Part shown: positions 3,741-61,835 of the stretch, piece by piece
How positions within the stretch are numbered: position 1 is the stretch's first letter
How the letters are laid out: each line of letters opens with the position of its first letter
Source: Alphaproteobacteria bacterium
GTDB taxonomy: Bacteria > Pseudomonadota > Alphaproteobacteria > UBA9219 > RFNS01
NCBI GenBank assembly: GCA_037200005.1
Contig: JBBCGY010000001.1
Location: 889,812 to 953,811, forward strand
Direction of reading: 5' to 3'
Length of the DNA stretch: 64,000 nt
Program-made: the position numbers and the translations under genes
Notes under the pieces: model-generated
What the model saw: only the letters and a program-made list of their open reading frames with translations
Databases searched by the model: none
What the model was told of the DNA's origin: nothing

Positions 3741-4187
3741 TTAGGCGGCCTTCGAGGGCTGAGTGATCGTTTCGACGATCTCGTTGACCCGCTGGCTGAT
3801 CGGCGCGATCGCCTGGCTGGCGGTGCGGGTGGAGATTTCGGTCATCTTCGTGGTTTCGGCCATGGAGTTATCCATCCAGCTGCGCATCAGACCGCTTTGC
3901 AGGTCGACAAGCTCGCGCAGTGTTTTGACGGCAAGCATTTGCTTGCTGACGGTCATGGATTGTTCCATGACGCCTTGCACCCATCCCATCGTATTCTTGG
4001 TGATTTCTTCACAGCCCTTGGCCACGATCGTGCAGGACTGCACCATGGCGTCCATATTGCTGCGTCCGATACAGGCCATCTTTTCCATCTGGTCGCTGGC
4101 CGTCTTCATGGCCGCTTCGGCAGCCCGCATCGTCGTTTCGGCCTGTTTGCTGGCCGCTTCTTGCCCTGTTTTCATCATAGACTCCAT
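3741..4187 (-). CDS. Phasin-family PHA granule-associated protein
   Basis: 148-aa Ala/Met/Gln-rich helical protein. Composition and length are typical of phasins (MMKTGQEAASKQAETTMRAAEAAMKT...). Confidence 0.65.
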   Translation of the reverse strand: MESMMKTGQEAASKQAETTMRAAEAAMKTASDQMEKMACIGRSNMDAMVQSCTIVAKGCEEITKNTMGWVQGVMEQSMTVSKQMLAVKTLRELVDLQSGLMRSWMDNSMAETTKMTEISTRTASQAIAPISQRVNEIVETITQPSKAA

Positions 4188-4343
4188 CTTGGGCGTTGGC
4201 GGGCGCAGCGAGCGCCACGAGTTTGCTATTTCTAGTCATGAGTGCATTCCTTGTATGTTCTACACCGTTCAGCGCATTATTGCTGAATATTTCAGGCGCA
4301 GACCAACAAAGGAAGATATGCCAAAGCCGACATATATCAATAT

Positions 4344-4357
4344 GCTGCACTGCAGCG
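4344..4357. promoter_or_regulatory. 13-nt palindrome GCTGCACTGCAGC in the phasin/dacC divergent intergenic region
   Basis: Perfect odd palindrome inside a 390-bp AT-rich intergenic region. Confidence 0.25.
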
Positions 4358-4579
4358 CGAAATCTACGGCTAATCGAATTTTGGAGTCAAGAGGAATCTT
4401 GGTATCGAAACGATTCCAAACCCTTTATCCGGGAATATTATGAAAAAACACAACTTATCTTTTTGAGAGGCCAGGCGCTTTTAATGCTTTCCTTGGCCGG
4501 AAAATTACGAAATAGTTGATTTTCGTTAACAATCGCTTCGTAATGATTCGTTATCCTAGGTCGGGGCGTAAGAAACTGC

Positions 4580-5911
4580 ATGATTATAAAATACATTAAA
4601 ATCATTGTGTTATCCTTATTCTTGGGCGTGCTGACATCCGCCGCCCAAGCCGATGATCGTTACGCTTCGATTGTCGTCGATGCCAAAAGCGGAAAGGTCG
4701 TCCAGTCGTATAATTCTGAAAGCCTGCGTCATCCTGCTTCGCTGACGAAGATGATGACCCTTTATATGACGTTTAAGGCGCTTAAGCAGGGAAAGCTGCG
4801 CGGCAATGAGGGTTTGCGCGTCTCTTCTTACGCGGCAGCGCAATCGCCTTCGAAGCTCGGACTGAAGCCGGGCGGAGTCTTGCGGGTTCGCGATGCGATT
4901 TTGGCGCTTATCGTTCAATCGGCTAACGACGCGGCCGTGACCCTGGGCGAGGAGATCGGAGGCAGCGAGGAAAATTTCGCGCGCATGATGACACAGCAGG
5001 CCAAAGAACTCGGCATGACCCGAACGGTTTTCTATAACGCTTCCGGTCTGCCCGACGACCGGCAAGTAACCACGGCCAGGGATATGGCCATTCTTGCCCG
5101 CGCGCTGCTTTTTAATTTCCCCGAGCATTACCGTTTATTCAGCACGCGGGATTTCAAGTATCGCGGGGTGCTTCATGCGAACCACAATCACTTAATGTCG
5201 CGCTATCCCGGCATGGATGGGATTAAAACAGGCTATATAAGGGCTTCCGGATTTAATCTTGTGGCTTCCGCGGTTCGGGGGAAAACGCGGCTTATCGGCG
5301 TTATTTTCGGTGGCGAGACGGCGCGGGGACGCGATAACGATATGGCGGCGCTGCTGAATGACAGCTTCGCCAAAAGCGCGGCATTGCTGACCTCTCAAGC
5401 GGCAACGCCGGTGCCCGCGGTGAAAGTCGCCGATGCCGCCGCGGCTCAAGCGGCATTCGCCGCGGCGCCGGCGGCAGCGGCTCCTTACGGGGCGGGCGAT
5501 ACCGTTGAGGATGTTATTACTGAAAATAATAAAACTGAACCGACGCCTGTGGCAATATCAACACAGCCGTCTCCGCCATCTTCCCAGCCTGTTTTACAGC
5601 CGGAGAAAAGCTCCGCGGAGAGCGCAGCGCCTCGCGCTCAGTCATGGGCGATTCAAATCGGCGCTTTCCGCAATCGTGCCGCCGCCGAGAAGGCGGTAGG
5701 GCGCATCGGCCAGTATTTGCCTAAGGATTTGGCCTCCGCGCGCTATCAGGTCGTTCGGGTCGCGGCCAAGTCCGGCACGGTTTATCGCTCCCGCTTGATC
5801 GATCTCGATGAAAGCGCGGCGCGCGCTATTTGCCGCATGCGGCACAGCGCGGCGAGGTCTGTGCCATTATTTCGCCTTCAGAATAGTATAAACGAGTATG
5901 TGGGGTGTTAA
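4580..5911 (+). CDS. D-alanyl-D-alanine carboxypeptidase (PBP5/6 family) with C-terminal SPOR domain
   Basis: Signal peptide. SxxK active site (ASLTKMMT), SxN (QSANDA) and KTG motifs. C-terminal WAIQIGAFRNRAAAEKA...YRSRL is a SPOR repeat. Confidence 0.85.
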   Translation: MIIKYIKIIVLSLFLGVLTSAAQADDRYASIVVDAKSGKVVQSYNSESLRHPASLTKMMTLYMTFKALKQGKLRGNEGLRVSSYAAAQSPSKLGLKPGGVLRVRDAILALIVQSANDAAVTLGEEIGGSEENFARMMTQQAKELGMTRTVFYNASGLPDDRQVTTARDMAILARALLFNFPEHYRLFSTRDFKYRGVLHANHNHLMSRYPGMDGIKTGYIRASGFNLVASAVRGKTRLIGVIFGGETARGRDNDMAALLNDSFAKSAALLTSQAATPVPAVKVADAAAAQAAFAAAPAAAAPYGAGDTVEDVITENNKTEPTPVAISTQPSPPSSQPVLQPEKSSAESAAPRAQSWAIQIGAFRNRAAAEKAVGRIGQYLPKDLASARYQVVRVAAKSGTVYRSRLIDLDESAARAICRMRHSAARSVPLFRLQNSINEYVGC

Positions 5912-19866: not shown

Positions 19867-19951
19867 GTTTCCGGCTGAAAGTAATACGCGGCTTGCCTTT
19901 TTCCGGCCGCGTTATGTAGATTGCCGTGGTTCGTATATTAAGGAGACATAG

Positions 19952-20355
19952 ATGAAGACGATTGCCGCCGCATTGGGTTCTTTCGTTATTGCGACAAACC
20001 AGCAATGGGATGCCTTGCCGTTAGGCGAGCGCAATGCCGTCACGTCTTCGGTTCGGGGCTTATTCCCTGAATCTTCCCGCCTTGTGGTTAAAAGGGACCA
20101 TGTTTCGGCGCAGTTTCTGAAGACTGGAGTAACCTTGGCTTATGATCTGGATAACGGCATCATGACAGCCTCCACGCCCTATGCATCGCAGATTACCGTG
20201 GTGGAGCCTATAACCGAGAGACAGTACGCGGCTTTGCAGCAAGGCCGGAGGCGAGGTCGTTACCGTCGATATCGAAGGCAGCAATCTTGTCTACAGCGCC
20301 CTGCGCTCCATTCTAACGCGGCCCCATATACGGGAAGCCCTGAGAAACGATCTAT
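19952..20355 (+). CDS. Hypothetical protein (about 135 aa) with a probable frameshift near 20240. Lower GC than its neighbours.
   Basis: Strong RBS AAGGAGacatagATG. The ORF 19952-20413 degenerates into Arg-rich text after ...QYAALQQ. The adjacent frame reads KAGGEVVTVDIEGSNLVYSALRSILTRPHIREALRNDL and stops at 20355. Confidence 0.35.
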
Positions 20356-20373
20356 AGCACGCCGAAAACGAGG

Positions 20374-20781
20374 TCAGAGATCCAAGCCGAGGAATTTCCT
20401 GACGTCGCCATAGGTCATGCCTATCTGCCGTGTAACGTCGGGCCGGTTCTCGCCCTCATGTGTTGCCTCGATAATGTTGAATTCGTTACCGGCGTGTGAA
20501 TATTCGACGCGGGTTTCATGGGTTTTCGGTATTATGTTATAAGGATTTGGCTCCATCCGTTGGCCATCGATGATAAAATATGCCACCGAGACAACGTCGC
20601 ACTTGAACCCGAGAATCTTTTCTCTCTCATGGCGGATAGGCTCGACCGTTGCGCCCCGAGCCGCCTTTGTAGCCAGTATCTCATTATACAAGGGTAGAAC
20701 TTTTGTCCGCAGCGCGCGCATCATCGCGCGCGCGTTTTTATATTGCTGCAATGTTTTGCCGGTTAATGGTTCCATCGTCAT
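20374..20781 (-). CDS. Hypothetical protein (135 aa). No recognisable domain.
   Basis: Balanced amino-acid composition. Convergent with the previous gene. Lies inside the otherwise conserved cox locus. Confidence 0.4.
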   Translation of the reverse strand: MTMEPLTGKTLQQYKNARAMMRALRTKVLPLYNEILATKAARGATVEPIRHEREKILGFKCDVVSVAYFIIDGQRMEPNPYNIIPKTHETRVEYSHAGNEFNIIEATHEGENRPDVTRQIGMTYGDVRKFLGLDL

Positions 20782-20889
20782 AAGCTCGCTTTATATATGT
20801 GATCTTCGAAAAGATATTAATGTGCGTTTCGGGTTGAAAGCAATTACAATCAGTTCTTTACCAGTTCTCCATGGTTAAACGGCGCGACG

Positions 20890-21237
20890 ATGACTGAAGC
20901 GGTTTCCATCAAAAATGTATTGTTTAGCCGCTGTCCCCGTTGCGGCAACGGCTCGCTGTTCGAGGGCTTTCTGAAGGTCAAGCCGTCATGCGACGAATGC
21001 GGCCTCGATTTCACCAAGGCGGATTCCGGCGACGGGGCGGCGGTGCTGCTTATCTTTCTTGTCGGCTTCCTGACCGTGCCGCCGATGGTCATTCTCGCGC
21101 TTCATGTCGACTGGCCGCTATGGGTTCATGCCATCCTGGCGAGCGTCGTGATCCTCGGCCTTGCGCTCGGCGCGATGCGCCCCGCCAAGGCGCTGATGAT
21201 CGCGTTGCAGTACCGGCACCGGCGGGAGACGTTTTAA
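20890..21237 (+). CDS. DUF983-family membrane protein with N-terminal Cys4 zinc ribbon
   Basis: [10 protein letters not shown]...CDECGLDF followed by two TM helices. Conserved partner of surf1 in alphaproteobacterial cox loci. Confidence 0.75.
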
Positions 21238-22346
21238 TGAGGAAAGGAAGCGTTGATCGCGGCGATCCAGCTACATATATAAGTGCCAGCCACATTGCCA
21301 ACAGCATTTATACTGCTCTGTTCCGCAAAATTATATATTTTTTGAAGAATTCCAGGACTTTCTTTTTTGATGGTCATTAAGGCTTGCTTTATTTCAGCCT
21401 CATCACTTTTCTGTACTCCATTTCTAATTTTAGTTTCTATAATTTTTAAGGCAGTGCTGAGGGTATTGTTATGAGATTGGGTTAAGGACTCCACTACAAT
21501 TTTTAGTAATTCCAGTTCGGGGGTTGGCTTATCAAGAGCTATGGATAAGAGTGTAGTCATTTCTTGTAGTTGGCTTTGAAGACTTTTATTATGTGAGGCT
21601 AGGTGTTCGCTGTGGCGTTGCTCCACTTCTAAGAGCTCAGTCCGATTTTGAATCTGCATTTCGGCAATTCTTAACTGCTGTTTCATTTCTAAAACCTTTA
21701 TTTCGTTGCCAAGAAATGTTTCGGGAGTTATCTCTCCTTTGAGAACCAAATTATAGTTGTGCAATGTTTGTTCTACCTGCTCTTTTTCTCCATCAGGTGT
21801 TTCTATTACTAAAATGACTTTTAAGCCTTCTTGCTGAATGGAAACGCGTACATCTTTGTTGGCATATTTATCTCGAACGATACTGGAAAAATTTGATAGA
21901 ATGGTCATACCAGCAGCGTGATACTCTGGTGGAAATTCTATTGATCTGACAATCGATGAAAAACCTTCTTTTGTTAGCAATTCATGCCAATTTATATCGA
22001 CGCCCAATCCTTTAATAAATTCTTTGGCAAAGTCATTCCGAGCTTCGGCCCCTGGTTCGCATATGAGTGCTGCACATAGAACAGTGCATTCATCACACAC
22101 AAATACTGTGGGGCTTCCAGAGATAAGTTTACGAACTTCATGTTGGCTCTTTCCACAAAAGGAGCAGTAAACTATCTCGCTACGAATGCGAACAGTCTGG
22201 GCTTGATGGGCAGCTGCGTCCGCAATAGCGGACATCTGGCGGCCAGCGTCCGCCTGCATGTTTTTGAGTATTTCCGTCTGTCGATCTATCAGGTCTCTGA
22301 GAGCGGCTGCGCTTAATATAGGTGGAGATACCTGATCGTCAGACAT
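21234..22346 (-). CDS. ClpX-type C4 zinc-finger domain protein with AT-rich coiled-coil C-terminal region. Function unknown.
   Basis: [35 protein letters not shown] closely matches the ClpX N-terminal zinc-binding domain. No AAA+ module. The 3' two-thirds is about 35% GC in a roughly 60% GC context. Confidence 0.65.
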
Positions 22347-22447
22347 GAATAATGCTCCAAATTATACGATACACAACGCCAATGCTTGCATTATCATTCC
22401 ATTTATTCAAGTAACAATATAAGTGCAAACTTCTCTAGGAGTTCCTT

Positions 22448-23167
22448 TTGCCCCAATACCGCATCTTCAACGGCACATTCACCCCGCGTCCCGGTCCGGC
22501 GCTGTTCACGATATTCGGCGTCGGCGTGCTGCTGGCGCTCGGCTGGTGGCAGCTCGACCGCATGGTCTGGAAGCATGATCTGATCGCAAGGATCGAGGCG
22601 GGCTTGAAGGCCGAGCCCGTCGCGCTGCCAGGCGCGATCCCCGATCCCAAGGCGCTCGATTATGTTCGCGTGCAGGTGACGGGGGTTATGCATCACGACA
22701 AGGAATTCCATCTCGCCGCGCGCGATAAATACGGGAGCTTCGGCTATAACATCCTGATTCCGCTTGAAACCGGCAGCGGATTTATTCTGCTCAATCGCGG
22801 TTTCGTGCCGTCGAAGAAAAAGCCGCCGGAAACCCGGCCCGAAGGACAGATTCAGGGCGCGGTGACGATCACCGGCATCGCGCGGGTTCCGGGCAAGCCG
22901 TCGATTTTCATGCCGGATAACCAGCCCGAAAAGAATTTCTGGCTGTTCATCGATTTCCCGAAAATGGCTGCTGTGGCCGGGATTAAGGCATTCATGCCGG
23001 TCGTGGTCGAAGCCGACGCGGCGCCCAATCCCGGCGGCTATCCGATAGGCGGGCAGACGCGGACGGATTTTCCCGATAATCATTTGGTCTATGCGATAAC
23101 CTGGTTTAGTCTGGCCGTGGCGCTGGCGGCGATATTCTTTCTCTCTCACTGGCGGCGCGAAGCATAA
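22448..23167 (+). CDS. surf1: SURF1-family cytochrome oxidase assembly protein
   Basis: N- and C-terminal TM helices. LVYAITWFSLAVAL. Position in the cox locus. Confidence 0.85.
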   Translation: MPQYRIFNGTFTPRPGPALFTIFGVGVLLALGWWQLDRMVWKHDLIARIEAGLKAEPVALPGAIPDPKALDYVRVQVTGVMHHDKEFHLAARDKYGSFGYNILIPLETGSGFILLNRGFVPSKKKPPETRPEGQIQGAVTITGIARVPGKPSIFMPDNQPEKNFWLFIDFPKMAAVAGIKAFMPVVVEADAAPNPGGYPIGGQTRTDFPDNHLVYAITWFSLAVALAAIFFLSHWRREA

Positions 23168-23367: not shown

Positions 23368-24750
23368 TTGCGTTATCACAGCACACGCGGGCAAGCGCCG
23401 GAGCTTGATTTTCTGGACGCCGCGATGGCGGGCCTGGCGGCGGATGGCGGCCTTTATTTGCCCAAGGCATGGCCCAAAATCGCCGAAGCGGACATGGTTT
23501 CGTGGCGGGATCAGCCATACCGGAATATTGCCTTTAACGTCTTAAAGCCTCTGATCGGTGACGCTTTAACGAATGCGGAGTTGCAAGGCCTGATCGATCG
23601 CGCGCTCGCGTATTTCGCCCATCCCGATATTGCGCCCTTACGCCAATTAGACGAACGATTGTGGCTGCTCGAATTGTTTCACGGCCCGACGCTGGCATTC
23701 AAGGATATGGCGCTGCAATTCCTGGGACAATTGTTCGATTTCATGCTGGCGCGAAGCGGCAAGCGCGCGACGGTGATCGGCGCGACATCGGGTGACACCG
23801 GCTCGGCGGCGATGGCGGGCTGCGCCGGATGCAAGAATCTCGACGTTTTTATTCTCTATCCGCATAACCGGCCCAGCGAGATTCAGCGCCGCCAGATGAC
23901 AACCCACACCGCGCCGAATATTCACGCCATCGCCGTCGAAGGCAGCTTCGATGACTGCCAGGCGCTGGTGAAGGCGATCTTCAACGACCCCGCAGCGCGG
24001 GCGGCGTTCAATCCGATAGCGGTGAATTCGATCAACTGGGCGCGGATCGCGGCGCAGATCGTCTATTATTTCGTCGCGGCGATAAGGCTGGGCGCGCCGG
24101 CTGTCGCGCCGAGCTTCGTCGTGCCGACGGGCAATTTCGGCAATATCTTCGCCGGTTTCGCCGCGATGCAAATGGGACTGCCGGTTTCGCGGCTGGCGGC
24201 CGCGACCAACCGCAACGACGCGGTGCATCGCTTTTTCACCGAAGGGGAAATCATTCCCGCCGTCGTGCAGCCAAGCCTCAGCCCCAGCATGGATATTCAA
24301 GTCCCCAGCAATCTGGAGCGGTTGCTGTTCGCGCTGACGGATTATGACGGCGCGGCGACGCGCAAGATCATGGCCGCGGACCATCCGCGCCTGTCGCCGA
24401 TCATGCTTGGAAAGGCGCGGCAATATTTCACGTCGGCGCGGGTCGACGATGCCGAAACCTTGAAGGCCATGACGGATATTTATGGCGGAACCGGCTATTT
24501 GCTCGATCCCCACAGCGCGGTCGGAGTCGCCGCCGCGCGGCAGCTGGCGCGCGAACTGCCGGAGCCGGTCGTCTGCCTCGCCACCGCGCATCCGGCGAAA
24601 TTCCCGGAAGCCGCCGCCAGCGCCATTCACCATCCGCTCGATCCGCCGCCGGAGATCGCGGCGCTGTATGATCTGCCGGAGCGCATAACCATCTTGCCGT
24701 CCGACTACCGGCAAGTCACCGATTATATCAGGGAACACAGAACAGCATGA
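23368..24750 (+). CDS. thrC: Threonine synthase
   Basis: PLP-lysine motif FHGPTLAFKDMALQ. TTG start. 460 aa. Confidence 0.9.
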   Translation: MRYHSTRGQAPELDFLDAAMAGLAADGGLYLPKAWPKIAEADMVSWRDQPYRNIAFNVLKPLIGDALTNAELQGLIDRALAYFAHPDIAPLRQLDERLWLLELFHGPTLAFKDMALQFLGQLFDFMLARSGKRATVIGATSGDTGSAAMAGCAGCKNLDVFILYPHNRPSEIQRRQMTTHTAPNIHAIAVEGSFDDCQALVKAIFNDPAARAAFNPIAVNSINWARIAAQIVYYFVAAIRLGAPAVAPSFVVPTGNFGNIFAGFAAMQMGLPVSRLAAATNRNDAVHRFFTEGEIIPAVVQPSLSPSMDIQVPSNLERLLFALTDYDGAATRKIMAADHPRLSPIMLGKARQYFTSARVDDAETLKAMTDIYGGTGYLLDPHSAVGVAAARQLARELPEPVVCLATAHPAKFPEAAASAIHHPLDPPPEIAALYDLPERITILPSDYRQVTDYIREHRTA

Positions 24751-25244
24751 CGGTCCGGATTTCAAAACTCGCCAATGGTTTGACGGTGGCCACCGACACC
24801 ATGCCCGATTCCTACAGCGTCGCCTTCGGCGTGTGGGCGGGGGTTGGAACCCGCGACGAGCCGAAAGAGGCGCAAGGAGTCGCGCATCTGGTCGAGCATA
24901 TGCTGTTCAAGGGTACGAAACGGCGCAGCGCCATCGAAATTTCCGAGGCGATGGAGGGCGTGGGCGGCTACATGAACGCCTATACCTCGCGCGAAGAGAC
25001 GGCCTATCACGCGCGCATGCTGCCCGAGCATGTCGAGCGCGGCTGCGATATCATATCCGATATGCTGATGCATTCGGTGATCGATCCGGTCGAGCTTGAC
25101 CGCGAACGCGCGGTCATCATCCAGGAAATCGGCCAGTCTCTCGATGCCCCCGACGATCATATTTTCGATCTGATGCAGGAAACGGCTTTTCCGGGGCAGG
25201 CAATCGTGAAAGCGCCATTATATGACGACCAAAAGGAATCATAA
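24747..25244 (+). pseudogene. M16-family zinc peptidase truncated after about 155 aa. The 3' remainder is missing.
   Basis: HxxEH motif HLVEHMLFKG and the N-terminal M16 fold. Homology ends near 25207 (FPGQAI), about 270 aa short of full length. The region overlaps the end of a minus-strand island gene. Confidence 0.65.
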
Positions 25245-27354: not shown

Positions 27355-28517
27355 GCGGCCTCCTCTCTTTTCCTGGATGGAATGTACTTTTCCATGGCCT
27401 GCCTTAATTCAATATCCTCGACAAAGTCTTCCGGCGAGAAGTCGCTTTCCTTATAACGCCCGTATTTCCAGTTATCGGAAATAGGCTTGAAATGGCGATA
27501 GACATACTCCTTCGCGGGCAGGAATTTGCTCGGCTGGTTGGCGATGCTGTGCACCGTCCATGTATTAAGGGCCGCAGAGCATTTGCGAGGCACCGCGCAC
27601 CATTTGTTGGCGCATTTCGACGTGTCTTCTTTCTCAAAATAATAATAATGCGCATGGCGGCGCACGCCGCCCGTAATTTCGGCGGCGCTCGCATTGCTTA
27701 TCCAGACTCCGCCGAAATGCGTCACGCCGAAGATCGAAGCCTCGGCGCGCTCATAGACGGATTGCGGCGATTTCGAGACGATCAGCTCGTCGATGTCGCA
27801 GTTCAGTACGCTCCGCGCCTTTTGCAGGAACCTGAAACGGGCGTGCTGAAGAACGCCAATCTGGCAGAAAACGGAATCCCACGGCGCGATCTTCCCGCCG
27901 ACGCCGCCGGAAACTCCCCCCTGAGGCCCATATTTGAAGGGCCACGAAATCACCAGGATGAGAAGGCCGGGAAACGCCGACGAAAGCGCATCCTGCAGTT
28001 CGCCCGGCGAGTATTTGTCCGAATTGTTGTCGTAGAACAGGACCGCATCCGTTCCCTGGCTGTTCACGTAATATGTTATCCAGTCTATGATCCAATGGAT
28101 CTCATTGTTCTTGGATAGCGTCAGCAAGACGCGCTTGCCCGCGAACAGGCCGTTCCCGTCCGGCTGGACATCAATGTCGAAAGAGCCGAGATCGCCGCGA
28201 AGGGATATTTTCTTGTCGTCGCTCTTAATCCAAATATCGTTAGCCAGTTTTCGATCATAAATCCTGTTTTGGAAATTCAAGGCTCCCAGCTTGCTCGCAA
28301 AGTATGGATATCGCGTCAGGCGCTCTTTAAGGTTAAAAAGCGGCGGCCCCTGAAAAACAACGTATTTTCCTGACGCATACACGTCATAAAACAGCGTCTT
28401 CCAATCATATTGGCCTTCGTAATTTTCATTCCTTAGGCTTAATGGCCTTGGCGCATCCCTGGCAACAGGCACGTCGTCAGGAATCGTGCAAATGCTTAGC
28501 TTTATCGTATTGGGCAT
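27351..28517 (-). CDS. Hypothetical protein with DxD-like motif (NCDIDELIV). Possible glycosyltransferase. About 45% GC.
   Basis: 388 aa, no TM segment, AT-rich codon usage unlike its neighbours. Sits within the polysaccharide gene cluster. Confidence 0.35.
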   Translation of the reverse strand: MPNTIKLSICTIPDDVPVARDAPRPLSLRNENYEGQYDWKTLFYDVYASGKYVVFQGPPLFNLKERLTRYPYFASKLGALNFQNRIYDRKLANDIWIKSDDKKISLRGDLGSFDIDVQPDGNGLFAGKRVLLTLSKNNEIHWIIDWITYYVNSQGTDAVLFYDNNSDKYSPGELQDALSSAFPGLLILVISWPFKYGPQGGVSGGVGGKIAPWDSVFCQIGVLQHARFRFLQKARSVLNCDIDELIVSKSPQSVYERAEASIFGVTHFGGVWISNASAAEITGGVRRHAHYYYFEKEDTSKCANKWCAVPRKCSAALNTWTVHSIANQPSKFLPAKEYVYRHFKPISDNWKYGRYKESDFSPEDFVEDIELRQAMEKYIPSRKREEAA

Positions 28518-28627
28518 AAACTTCTCCTGACGAGCCGGCCATTTATAATACTTCTCTGTAATTCCAATGCCTTTATACCCGGATTTATTACTTTCAACAT
28601 ATTGTTTTATCTACCTATAGGGCGGTT

Positions 28628-29650
28628 TTATGGCAAAAAAACCAGTCTTTGTAAATTATAGCGAGTCAGACCCTTATAGATCAGAACCGGGATGCCTATG
28701 CCCGCAACCATGCCGCTCAATAAATGAATGCCCGGCGAGACGATGCCCACTTTCAGCAGCATAACCCGCCATGCCGCCAGGAAGATGATATGCATGACGA
28801 AAACGATGAGGGAAACCTTGCCCAATGCCGCCAAAGCCCTGCCGATGGGGAACTTGCTTAACCACTGGCTCGCCAAAAACACCAAAAACATCGCGGCAAA
28901 GGTCGCCGGCAGGACGATAATGCTGAAATACGGCACATGCTCTGAAATGCCCAGGGTCAGAAATGCCGCAAAAAGCATGGGAGAAAGCGCTCCCGCGATC
29001 ACGCATCGCCTGTGGGTCACGATCGCCTGAGGCCAGGATTTAGAGGCGGCATAGGCCCCCAGGAAGTAAAATACCCCGAAATCCGCGAGGCTCGCATATT
29101 CGGCGGAATCGATGTTCGCGGCCTCGGGATACGGTTCCACCGCCAGATGCCGGGCCAGATAAAGCCCGATGGCGATGATGAAGGCGAGGCCATACCGATC
29201 CTTCAAGGCCGCGGCGACAAGATGAAAAATCAGCAAGGCATACAGAAACCAGAACTGGGCGACGGGAATGTAAAACGGGGTCAACAAAGCTTCGATGCCG
29301 ATGGGATTATTGACCTGCTTGGACATCACGACCTTAAGGCCGACCTGAAGAATGGCCCAAAAGAAATACATCGGCACCAGCAGCTTGGTGCGGCGCCACG
29401 CGGAAATCCTGGCCGACGACCGGCTCAGGCTGCCATGCACATTATATCCCGCCAGCAAAAGGAATAGCGGCATATGCCAAAGATAAAATGAATAATCGAC
29501 GACCTCCCAAAGACTGTCAGCGGAAGAAATCCCCGCATTGACTAGCCCGCGCCAGACATGGCTATAGACCACGGCGGTGATGCCAATGCCTTTGGCGATA
29601 TCCTGAGCAGCGCTTCGGTCAATGAATTTTTGCTGATTTGTTCCGGTCAC
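28628..29650 (-). CDS. Acyltransferase family 3 (OafA/OpgC-like) integral membrane O-acyltransferase
   Basis: About 10 TM helices and the N-terminal AT3 conserved segment (ITAVVYSHV...WHMPLFLLLAGY). Confidence 0.75.
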   Translation of the reverse strand: MTGTNQQKFIDRSAAQDIAKGIGITAVVYSHVWRGLVNAGISSADSLWEVVDYSFYLWHMPLFLLLAGYNVHGSLSRSSARISAWRRTKLLVPMYFFWAILQVGLKVVMSKQVNNPIGIEALLTPFYIPVAQFWFLYALLIFHLVAAALKDRYGLAFIIAIGLYLARHLAVEPYPEAANIDSAEYASLADFGVFYFLGAYAASKSWPQAIVTHRRCVIAGALSPMLFAAFLTLGISEHVPYFSIIVLPATFAAMFLVFLASQWLSKFPIGRALAALGKVSLIVFVMHIIFLAAWRVMLLKVGIVSPGIHLLSGMVAGIGIPVLIYKGLTRYNLQRLVFLP

Positions 29651-60212: not shown

Positions 60213-60674
60213 TTATTGCTCCGCATCGGCGTGCTTGGCGTCGTGCCAAAGGATGATCTTGGATTCCAGATCGTCCGCCCGGAACGGCTTTGAAATATAA
60301 TCGTCCATTCCCGCTGCGAGGCAGCGCTCTCTGTCTCCGGCCAGCGCGTAGGCCGTGACGCCGACGATAGGAATGCGGCTGAAGCCATGCCGCTCTTCAT
60401 AGTCGCGGATCATGCGGGTAGCCGTGAAGCCATCCATCTCCGGCATCTGAACATCCATAAGGATGACATCGAAACCGCCGCCCCTCGCCTTCTCGAATGC
60501 CTCCTGGCCATTGCAAGCCGTTTCATGGCGAATGCCCAGCATCTCGAGCAGCGACGTCGCCACCAGCATATTGTCCGCGTTATCTTCGACAAGAAGCACG
60601 AGAGGATTTATTTCGCTATGGGCAACCGCAGAAGACGCATCCGCCGTATCGAAGGCGCTCATTGTTCTTTTCAT
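60213..60674 (-). CDS. Stand-alone response-regulator receiver (REC/CheY-like) protein
   Basis: LLVEDNADN...DVILMDVQMPEMDG...IPIVGVTAYA. No output domain. Confidence 0.85.
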   Translation of the reverse strand: MKRTMSAFDTADASSAVAHSEINPLVLLVEDNADNMLVATSLLEMLGIRHETACNGQEAFEKARGGGFDVILMDVQMPEMDGFTATRMIRDYEERHGFSRIPIVGVTAYALAGDRERCLAAGMDDYISKPFRADDLESKIILWHDAKHADAEQ

Positions 60675-60934
60675 AATCGCGGCCCTTCCTGTATGTCTGC
60701 ACGGGCATTTTCACAGACGCCAGCATGGAGCCTATTTATTGATAAAGTTTCAGCACTTTTGGTAAAATGCGTTAAATTAGACGAAATCACATGAAAAATT
60801 TATCAGCATCGCGGAATATGCAAGGCACAGTCAGGCTATTATGTAATTTTTATTATTCGATCGCGTGTCACGCTCGTTTGCTTATGAGCAGCCTAGTATT
60901 CATAAATCCGTCGCGACCTAGTCTCGACAGATGT

Positions 60935-60991
60935 GAGCCAGGGAAATTAGCCTTTCAGTGCAGACTGCGAGGAAATTATATTCCCTGGCTC
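60935..60991. repeat. 11-bp perfect inverted repeat GAGCCAGGGAA / TTCCCTGGCTC flanking a 35-nt loop
   Basis: Seen directly at 60935-60945 and 60981-60991. Intergenic. Confidence 0.5.
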
Positions 60992-61008
60992 CGCTGTCTT
61001 AGCGCCGC

Positions 61009-61161
61009 TTATCCCCTGATATTGAATCCGCTATCGACATAAATCACCTGGCCGGTGATATGCCGGGCGCTGGGAGAAGCGAGGAAAGCCGCCATAGCGC
61101 CGACATCCTCTATCGCGGCCAAGCCGACAATCAATCCCTTCATGCCGTTCAGATTAAACAT
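61009..61161 (-). pseudogene. C-terminal remnant of a short-chain dehydrogenase/reductase (SDR) gene (about 50 codons)
   Basis: Minus-strand translation MFNLNGMKGLIVGLAAIEDVGAMAAFLASPSARHITGQVIYVDSGFNIRG resembles SDR/FabI C-termini (...EDVA.AAFL.S..A..ITG..I.VDGG). No upstream catalytic part. Confidence 0.4.
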
Positions 61162-61250
61162 ACTTTTGTCCTTCTGTTGCTTATATGCTGAGGGGCGAGA
61201 GACGATTCGGCATATGCATAATATTCAAGCACGGGCGCGGAGGGAAAGAG

Positions 61251-61727
61251 ATGGAGCTAGCCGAAATTATTGGTTGGATTATCGCCACTTCGCTCGTCGC
61301 CATTACGGTTCTCATTCATTATGAGATCATGTTGATCACCTCCGACAAAATCCTTCCATGGGGGATCAAGCGGTTTCACGATCGCCGCGTCATGCTGATG
61401 ACGATCACCATGCTGATGATAGCGCATATCATCGAAATATGGGTTTTCGCGTTCGTTGTCTATTTCATGTATCTGACGCCCAAGCTCGGCTATTTGTCCG
61501 GCGAATTCGACGGCAGCCTGAGCGCCTGCGTATATTTCTCCGCCGTCAGCTACACATCGCTGGGCTACGGCGAAATAATCCCGCGCGGCGCTATCCGCAA
61601 TATAGCCGTATCCGAAGCGCTGATCGGACTTTTGATGATCGCCTGGTCTGCTTCCTTTACTTATATTAAAATGGAACAGACCTGGAACGAACGCAGAAAA
61701 AAAATCAGACATCCTTCTGCTGAATAA
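61251..61727 (+). CDS. Small KcsA-like two-TM potassium channel subunit
   Basis: Selectivity-filter-like SYTSLGYGEIIP between hydrophobic helices. RBS AGGGAAAGAG before ATG 61251. Confidence 0.6.
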   Translation: MELAEIIGWIIATSLVAITVLIHYEIMLITSDKILPWGIKRFHDRRVMLMTITMLMIAHIIEIWVFAFVVYFMYLTPKLGYLSGEFDGSLSACVYFSAVSYTSLGYGEIIPRGAIRNIAVSEALIGLLMIAWSASFTYIKMEQTWNERRKKIRHPSAE

Positions 61728-61835
61728 CCCGATATTTATGGAGTTCGTATTCTTTCTTTATGCCTTCCTTGTCAACGTAACCGCCAATAGCCGTCAAAGC
61801 GGCAATGGTCGTCACACTTTGAGATGGAGGAAATC

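Follow-up and report, generated by a model that had tools for sequence, protein, structure and literature searches.

The window analysed here, a stretch of 64 kb from an alphaproteobacterial genome (contig JBBCGY010000001.1 of assembly GCA_037200005.1), harbours between the DUF983 gene and surf1 an additional gene, which is an intact, horizontally acquired single-gene cassette. The encoded protein of 370 amino acids (aa) combines a zinc-binding domain (ZBD) of the ClpX type with a C-terminal module of 259 aa. This module constitutes an undescribed domain family, in which the ZBD is one recurrent head among many on a constant body, and the combination of ZBD and module is a new variant among the ZBD proteins that are devoid of an AAA+ unfoldase. 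The description of the gene, the domain, the insertion and the module family is near certain, and the function proposed below is put forward with more reserve.

The ClpX-type head

The Pfam model zf-C4_ClpX (PF06689) matches aa 60-95 of the window protein (22062..22169, minus strand) with E=2.1e-13 and 50.4 bits against a cut-off of 27, and all four cysteines serving as zinc ligands, C61, C64, C84 and C87, are kept within the sequence YCSFCGK...VCDEC. The ClpX N-terminal C4 zinc finger, which had been noticed in a preceding reading of the DNA without database searches (hereafter the sequence-only reading), is thereby confirmed. To genuine ClpX ZBDs the domain shows 71-78% identity, surface positions included, and to the ZBDs of its own module family 38-75%; so close a likeness to ClpX would be expected of a mimic under selection. 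Ahead of the domain lies an N-terminal extension of aa 1-58 (22173..22346, minus strand), predicted to form a helix followed by an alanine-rich linker. This extension is not conserved in the family, the N-termini being variable in the alignment, and was assigned low confidence in the first structure model.

The AAA+ module of ClpX is absent, as the sequence-only reading had stated. No AAA model of Pfam matches the 370-aa protein, and the ClpX equivalogs of NCBIfam (TIGR00382 and NF003745) reach 33-35 bits where 359-371 would be required, and this match is confined to the ZBD. A tblastn search of the 64-kb window with a full-length ClpX of 419 aa aligns ClpX residues 11-56 and finds nothing else in the window. 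Because the AAA+ module required of a ClpX was looked for and is missing, the window protein belongs, by sequence, to the zf-C4_ClpX domain family but is not ClpX. An origin as a fragment of a disrupted clpX gene was likewise rejected, since there is no AAA+ remnant and the relatives share the architecture without AAA+, none of those with this architecture being a full-length ClpX. Hence, the protein shares with the N-domain of ClpX the fold family, the four zinc cysteines and a high sequence identity, but it lacks the AAA+ unfoldase and the ClpP-binding part, and features instead a 58-aa extension before and an unrelated 259-aa module after the ZBD.

In ClpX, the ZBD also docks ZBD-dependent substrates such as lambda O and MuA. 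Moreover, it constitutes the docking platform for the adaptors SspB and RssB (PMC7226468). By analogy, the window protein would share the interface of ZBD and ligand with SspB, RssB and anti-adaptors of the IraD type (PMC7226468), although these proteins bind a ZBD, whereas the window protein is one; it contains no RssB-like domain, and a test for an SspB-type adaptor gave no match to PF04386.

The ZBD also occurs as a portable head outside ClpX in other proteins without AAA+, namely in small phage proteins (PHROG 6797, 12435 and 5259), in fusions of a glyoxalase-like domain with the ZBD (PF20066 and PF06689) and in an SspB-ZBD fusion; none of them bears the C-terminal module, and all are uncharacterised too. 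Among these AAA+-less fusions (P0012, P0016, P0022, P0037 and P0115), P0012 joins an SspB domain to a ZBD within 211 aa, a curious case of an adaptor fused to its own docking domain. The glyoxalase-like fusions comprise about 230 aa, and one such cluster is found on a 75-kb contig. In a further small group, P0007-P0009 (about 380-450 aa), a long acidic N-terminus is followed by two tandem ClpX-type zinc fingers and then by hydrophobic, membrane-like segments, and the C-terminal module is again missing.

A constant module with exchangeable heads

Out of 5.8 billion proteins, six (P0001-P0006) align with the window protein over most of its length, at 34-45% identity. In P0004 the C-terminal part is kept and the N-terminus is different, and therefore the C-terminal 259 aa alone were used for the subsequent search. 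A profile built from six such sequences retrieved 1007 clusters (50% identity level) at E<=1e-3, 521 of which reach E<=1e-30, spread over Alpha-, Beta- and Gammaproteobacteria, lineages of the Geobacter and Syntrophales type, and Cyanobacteria. The module forms the C-terminal end of these proteins, its match ending at most 12 residues from the C-terminus in 145 of the 150 best representatives, and is preceded by a region of 0 to 375 aa. The few named members come from Ideonella azotifigens, a Chroococcidiopsidales cyanobacterium, Geobacter grbiciae, Aeromonas veronii and Paraburkholderia oxyphila, and are annotated either as hypothetical or after their head.

With respect to known families, no Pfam model covers the module in the six close members or in 124 representatives, and searches of NCBIfam, PADLOC, PHROGs and BFVD gave no match. 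A comparison of the sequence profile with the PDB yielded E=0.29 at best, and full-text searches of the literature brought up no description of the ZBD-module architecture.

A census of the heads by Pfam on the 124 representatives revealed 54 families in all. Receiver domains (Response_reg) are the most frequent with 21 representatives, followed by zf-C4_ClpX with 14 and pentapeptide repeats with 13. About four heads are helix-turn-helix (HTH) domains of the XRE type and three are of the HTH_11/DeoR type; Bac_DnaA, CBS, GAF, HisKA and Sigma70_r4 occur twice each, and Sigma54_activat, Cas_NE0113, PIN_4 and the N-terminal domain of DnaB once each. Clustering of the heads by sequence agrees with the Pfam assignment and adds two unknown helical groups of 10 and 5 members as well as 43 singletons. 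A second search, performed with a central sub-alignment, uncovered a large XRE-HTH subgroup and more members with PIN, leucine-rich repeat and pentapeptide heads. The receiver heads keep the phospho-acceptor site intact, as judged by eye, for example in P0136.

The type of head tracks the similarity of the modules loosely. In 6 of 16 ZBD proteins, the closest neighbour by module bears a different head, and in P0004 and P0121, the modules of which are about 40% identical to that of the window protein, the head is another one. Since some nearest neighbours by module thus bear other heads, the ZBD is one choice among many. In this respect the family resembles response regulators and one-component regulators, in which a variable N-terminal head (receiver, HTH, GAF or CBS) is likewise followed by a constant C-terminal module, but the module matches no known output domain and the head of the window protein is not a signalling domain.

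Two observations concern individual subgroups. The Syntrophales protein P0158 (8001-10804 on locus L045), which is annotated as DnaA, really consists of a DnaA ATPase domain and the C-terminal module; its gene adjoins a gene for a serine protease of the ClpP/SDH type, and this pair recurs on a second contig (L046). Five XRE-HTH members (P0428, P0451, P0464, P0472 and P0482) have a precomputed match to Pfam PF26355, which may describe the head or a part of the variant C-terminus of the module in these members.

Structure and conservation of the module

A structure model of the module derived from 150 sequences attained a predicted local distance difference test (pLDDT) score of 82.6, whereas an earlier one from 7 sequences (pLDDT 58.8) was unusable. 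According to the model and the conservation within the family, the module opens with a conserved alpha+beta domain (aa 118-202; 21741..21995, minus strand), in which the modelled elements follow the order strand-strand-helix-strand-strand-helix. This domain, the most conserved part of the family, contains the motif I.R.IEFPPE..(Q/A)AG.(S/T)IL..F ... I(E/Q)Q.G ... IETP.G, which the window protein fits with SIQQEG ... PDG. In the 150 sequences, only Q172 and G186 (Q61 and G75 of the module) are invariant, both of which the window protein keeps, and all other module positions conserved to at least 90% are hydrophobic or glycine. Judging from the alignment, the conservation of the module therefore does not look like that of an active site.

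The alpha+beta domain is followed by a helix of 58 aa (aa 215-272; 21531..21704, minus strand), which both models contain and which probably forms a dimeric coiled coil. The hydropathy of this helix, taken over the family, shows a power of 31 at a period of 3.5 residues, 22.8 at 3.6 and 11.9 at 7, and no more than 7.5 at any tested non-heptad period shorter than 3.5 or longer than 3.6; the strong 3.5-residue period thus fits a coiled coil of about 58 aa. The model continues with a bundle of four helices (aa 277-347; 21306..21518, minus strand), to which the tail helix contributes a fifth. This bundle is less conserved and is diverged or replaced in the XRE-HTH subgroup, whose matches extend over only about 67% of the module. 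At the extreme C-terminus, a hydrophobic tail (21237..21293, minus strand), modelled as a terminal hydrophobic helix of aa 352-367, is conserved across the family. Its motif, G..GN.LY.W.......LPK, is slightly divergent in the window protein, with FPH for LPK. With a mean Eisenberg hydrophobicity of about 0.5 and a hydrophobic moment of about 0.26, the tail of the window protein could be a membrane-seeking segment.

The sequence-only reading had taken the C-terminal part for about 270 aa of coiled coil. This assignment has to be replaced: only some 58 aa qualify, the remainder being modelled as the alpha+beta domain of about 85 aa, the bundle and the tail helix, and the relatives reveal an unannotated module family of about 1000 clusters.

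Insertion of the gene between DUF983 and surf1

The gene for the ZBD-module protein extends over 21234..22346 on the minus strand, stop codon included, as an intact open reading frame (ORF) that starts with ATG, and the same gene is called on the NCBI contig JBBCBH010010965.1 (assembly GCA_037975565.1), which matches the window. It is the sole ORF of an inserted foreign segment of about 1.2 kb (21238..22447), which comprises the gene and its own upstream region and is delimited by the profile of GC content as well as by empty sites in relatives. The gene is oriented opposite to its flanks, the DUF983 gene (20890..21237, plus strand; PF06170, E=1e-27) and surf1 (22448..23167, plus strand; PF02104, E=2e-46), which it separates by 1.2 kb. 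As had been read from the letters alone, its stop codon overlaps that of DUF983 convergently, the palindrome TTAA at 21234-21237 being common to both. The AT-rich upstream region (22347..22447, minus strand) contains a GGAG 9 nt 5' of the ATG and a predicted sigma-70-like promoter at 22417-22390 (TTGTTA, 16 nt, GATAAT), which is a match to the consensus only.

The gene contains 41.2% GC, compared with a mean of 57.5% in the window (standard deviation 3.8% among stretches of the same size), and constitutes the lowest-GC stretch of its size (1.1 kb) in all 64 kb (z=-4.3). At 21240, GC content drops from about 63% to 31-40%, rising again at about 22450, and GC at third codon positions (GC3) amounts to 0.33-0.43 in the gene versus 0.74-0.79 in coxC, DUF983, surf1 and thrC. 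The 100 bp upstream of the gene have 34% GC, in agreement with the AT-rich upstream stretch noted earlier. A step within the gene from 60% to 35% GC, which the same reading had described, was not recovered: the first 270 nt have 49% and the remainder 39%, and only nt 90-180, which encode the linker rich in alanine and arginine, reach 60%. The ZBD-coding stretch, with 43% GC and a GC3 of 0.30, is AT-rich like the rest of the gene, hence the composition gives no hint of a fusion to host DNA, and a chimera of host and foreign DNA was rejected, the alanine-rich linker being the only GC-rich part. Of the two options that had been offered, a chimeric or a horizontally acquired gene, composition and empty sites thus speak for acquisition, and the lack of a GC step speaks against the chimera.

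The empty sites are found in the two nearest SURF1 relatives, which share 63% and 60% identity and are encoded on a 201-kb and a 69-kb contig. There, DUF983 and surf1 lie 2 bp apart or overlap within the common order coxC-DUF983-surf1-thrC-peptidase M16; surf1 follows directly after DUF983 in the relatives L048, L049 and L050. The nearest full-length relatives of the protein in species-representative genomes are gammaproteobacterial, from Algicola, an Alteromonadaceae isolate, Methylomonas and Stenotrophomonas africana. Foreign origin and insertion follow from the composition, the empty sites in the SURF1 relatives and these gammaproteobacterial protein relatives, in line with the AT-rich foreign insertion that the sequence-only reading had proposed. 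An assembly chimera, which that reading had named as a possible objection, was rejected because the DUF983-side junction recurs in a second assembly (GCA_015689235.1), on an independent contig of 1053 bp that encodes the 108 C-terminal residues with one position differing from the window protein. An integrative element was rejected as well: the insert contains no integrase, insertion sequence or transposase, the flanking repeats are chance-level 10-mers only, and no tRNA lies near the insert, an Rfam scan of the window having given only two tRNAs, at 365 and 38320.

Genomic setting of the family

In an all-against-all comparison of the neighbours at 30 independent loci, no neighbour family recurs. 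A conserved partner gene was therefore rejected, as only near-duplicate loci share genes, and the lack of a recurring neighbour implies that the proteins of the family act alone or with universal host components. In particular, clpX, clpP and sspB adjoin none of the family members examined.

Among 125 neighbours within 5 kb, Phage_integrase is the most frequent Pfam family, and strong PADLOC matches comprise subunits of type I restriction-modification (RM) systems, PDC-S01/S18/S41 and mad2. Individual loci feature an integrase together with ParE/HTH and a Schlafen-AlbA protein (SLFN_AlbA_2); a DUF4145 protein with a CAP12-PCTIR TIR protein and an HD protein; an IS1595 element with a type I HsdM; a HEPN protein with a resolvase; and an integrase at the prophage end of a viral contig. 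Furthermore, a P2-like Vibrio prophage carries a family gene beside Bro-N, oriented contrary to the tail genes, and a mobilizable Polaromonas plasmid carries one together with a recombinase, an XRE regulator and a methyltransferase. The possibility that the family is phage-borne was nevertheless rejected, since only two IMG/VR loci, two Vibrio prophage records and one plasmid carry the module.

Possible functions of the protein

The reading tentatively preferred here, although it falls short of being probable, is that of a conflict-type accessory protein of modular build, the head of which mimics the N-domain of ClpX, intercepts the ligands of this domain and couples their binding to the module. 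The coiled coil, the conserved glutamine and glycine together with hydrophobic positions, and the hydrophobic tail point to the module as a non-enzymatic, dimerising body, which would provide a common output or assembly function for whatever the respective head binds, and the tail of which may reach the membrane. With regard to the head, the high identity to ClpX ZBDs and the role of the ZBD as docking site suggest binding in the manner of ClpX, and this identity makes dimerisation plausible as well. In mimicking the N-domain of ClpX, the head would intercept the usual ligands of the ClpX ZBD, that is, the tails of SspB- or RssB-type adaptors and ZBD-dependent substrates including proteins of mobile elements, and the binding of a ligand to the paired heads would be transmitted to the module via the coiled coil. 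The patchy, mobile-element-associated distribution would place the protein among conflict-type single-gene systems of defence or exclusion and not in housekeeping ClpXP proteolysis. The sequence-only reading had mentioned an uncharacterised defence or regulatory system as a fallback, and of its suggestions this one fits the data best. With single-protein anti-phage systems and other cargo of defence islands the protein would share the solitary gene, the patchy distribution, the AT-rich import and the swapped domains as well as, in its relatives, neighbours such as integrases, RM, TIR, HEPN and ParE genes; it differs from them by the lack of a PADLOC match and of an NTPase or nuclease core.

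Several observations weigh against this interpretation. The most frequent heads, receiver and XRE-HTH domains, belong to ordinary signal transduction, and their predominance favours a regulatory scaffold over immunity. Some members reside in housekeeping loci, namely P0005 (peptidase M2, trypsin), P0157 (flagellar genes) and P0158 (metabolic genes), and the association with defence and mobile genes, scored without a background rate, is anecdotal and at most suggestive. The family is also very rare in mobile DNA, with 2 of 50,697 phage and 1 of 72,556 plasmid records; a second scan of IMG/VR viral sequences recovered no family member, and no model of PADLOC-DB v2 matches the window protein at E<=1. 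Moreover, the tail may pack into the helical bundle rather than insert into the membrane. Finally, the NCBI protein accessions proceed from DUF983 (MEJ0062489) to SURF1 (MEJ0062490) with none for the 370-aa product; public annotation seems to omit the gene or to flag it as a pseudogene.

As a somewhat unlikely alternative, the protein could be an ordinary signalling or scaffold protein, in which the module serves as a new output or oligomerisation domain and the ZBD is merely a dimerising zinc ribbon, with no link to conflict or to ClpXP. Such a role would be in keeping with the receiver heads (21 of 124, the commonest type) and their phospho-acceptor site, which appears intact by eye, with the large XRE-HTH subgroup and the GAF, CBS, HisKA and sigma-54 activator heads, and with the housekeeping character of several genomic contexts. 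However, an identity of 71-78% to ClpX would be surprising in a zinc ribbon of purely structural function, the PIN, DnaA ATPase, DnaB N-domain and Cas_NE0113 heads are atypical as signalling inputs, and members are recurrently located beside integrase, RM and toxin genes as well as on a prophage and a plasmid.

It appears unlikely that, in line with the main idea of the sequence-only reading, the protein is a regulator of ClpXP which retunes proteolysis by means of its free ZBD, be it as a decoy or anti-adaptor, as a partner of the ZBD of ClpX or as a carrier of cargo. The close similarity to true ClpX ZBDs, which includes surface positions, would suit such a function, as would the use of this domain as docking site by SspB and RssB (PMC7226468) and the existence of other ZBD fusions without AAA+ (the SspB-ZBD protein P0012 and the glyoxalase-like fusions). 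On the contrary, more than 50 types of head, the ZBD among them, occur on this module, the function of which therefore cannot be ClpX-specific; neither clpX nor clpP nor sspB lies beside any member examined; and a foreign, patchily distributed gene would be unusual for a housekeeping regulator.

Doubtful, too, is a bolder version of the conflict-type interpretation, in which the module is the hallmark of a so far unrecognised class of conflict proteins encoded by single genes, and the heads are copies, integrated into these proteins, of host factors that mobile elements target or need. Candidates for such copies would be the docking domain of ClpX, the DnaA ATPase, the N-domain of DnaB, region 4 of sigma-70 and the DNA-mimicking pentapeptides. 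These heads would act either as baits that sense a protein of the invader or as dominant-negative fragments that are released for cell arrest. The arrangement would constitute a bacterial parallel to the integrated decoys of plant immune receptors, with the window protein as the member baited with ClpX.

That the gene is a non-functional relic or an artefact, i.e. a decaying pseudogene, a piece of disrupted clpX or a chimera of metagenome assembly, is very improbable and already largely refuted: the source is indeed a metagenome-assembled genome, the NCBI protein accessions pass over the gene and the insertion features neither a mobility gene nor a target-site repeat, but the 370 codons are uninterrupted and align end to end with relatives including the exact C-terminus of the family, the family-invariant residues are all kept, the relatives never possess AAA+, the ZBD-coding DNA is AT-rich like the rest, and an independent contig shows the DUF983-side junction again, with a single amino-acid difference.

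Further features of the window

The cox cluster contains a second variable spot between coxC and DUF983 (19867-20889). In the relatives, coxC and DUF983 are 20 bp apart in one case and separated by an unrelated ORF of 160 aa in another. In the window, this gap accommodates two overlapping ORFs, 19952-20413 on the plus strand and 20374-20781 on the minus strand, which are intermediate in GC3 (0.55-0.60) and find no counterpart in Pfam, NCBIfam, PADLOC or PHROGs, as well as a GC-only hairpin, GCGCGCGCATCATCGCGCGCGC, at 20712-20733.

On the other side of surf1, the peptidase M16 gene ends after 165 aa (24747-25244), whereas the protein of relatives comprises about 404 aa. Position 1 of the NCBI contig corresponds to about 25200 of the window and the sequence beyond is unrelated, which suggests that a contig end or join falls within the window at this point. 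Other dips in GC content, to about 48-50%, occur at 4001-5000, 28001-29000 and 60651-61800, and may represent further imports.

Significance

The observations of the sequence-only reading are for the most part borne out, and its interpretation is supported in part. The most interesting part of the protein is the half that this reading took for coiled coil. It belongs to a large family with a conserved module of about 250 aa, which is absent from Pfam, NCBIfam, PADLOC and PHROGs as well as from the solved and viral predicted structures searched, and the module is hence a concrete candidate both for experimental study and for a domain entry of its own. The multitude of heads on one body offers a testable handle on the role of this body, in that real phospho-accepting receivers could be activated artificially. 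In addition, a horizontally imported, free docking domain of the ClpX type would constitute a natural probe of what happens when the adaptor traffic of ClpXP is intercepted. Even if the protein is only a scaffold, the locus still represents a clean single-gene insertion that separates DUF983 and surf1, a translationally coupled pair within a gene cluster for the assembly of cytochrome oxidase. Should the heads indeed serve as baits or decoys, the family would reveal a new logic for bacterial immunity.

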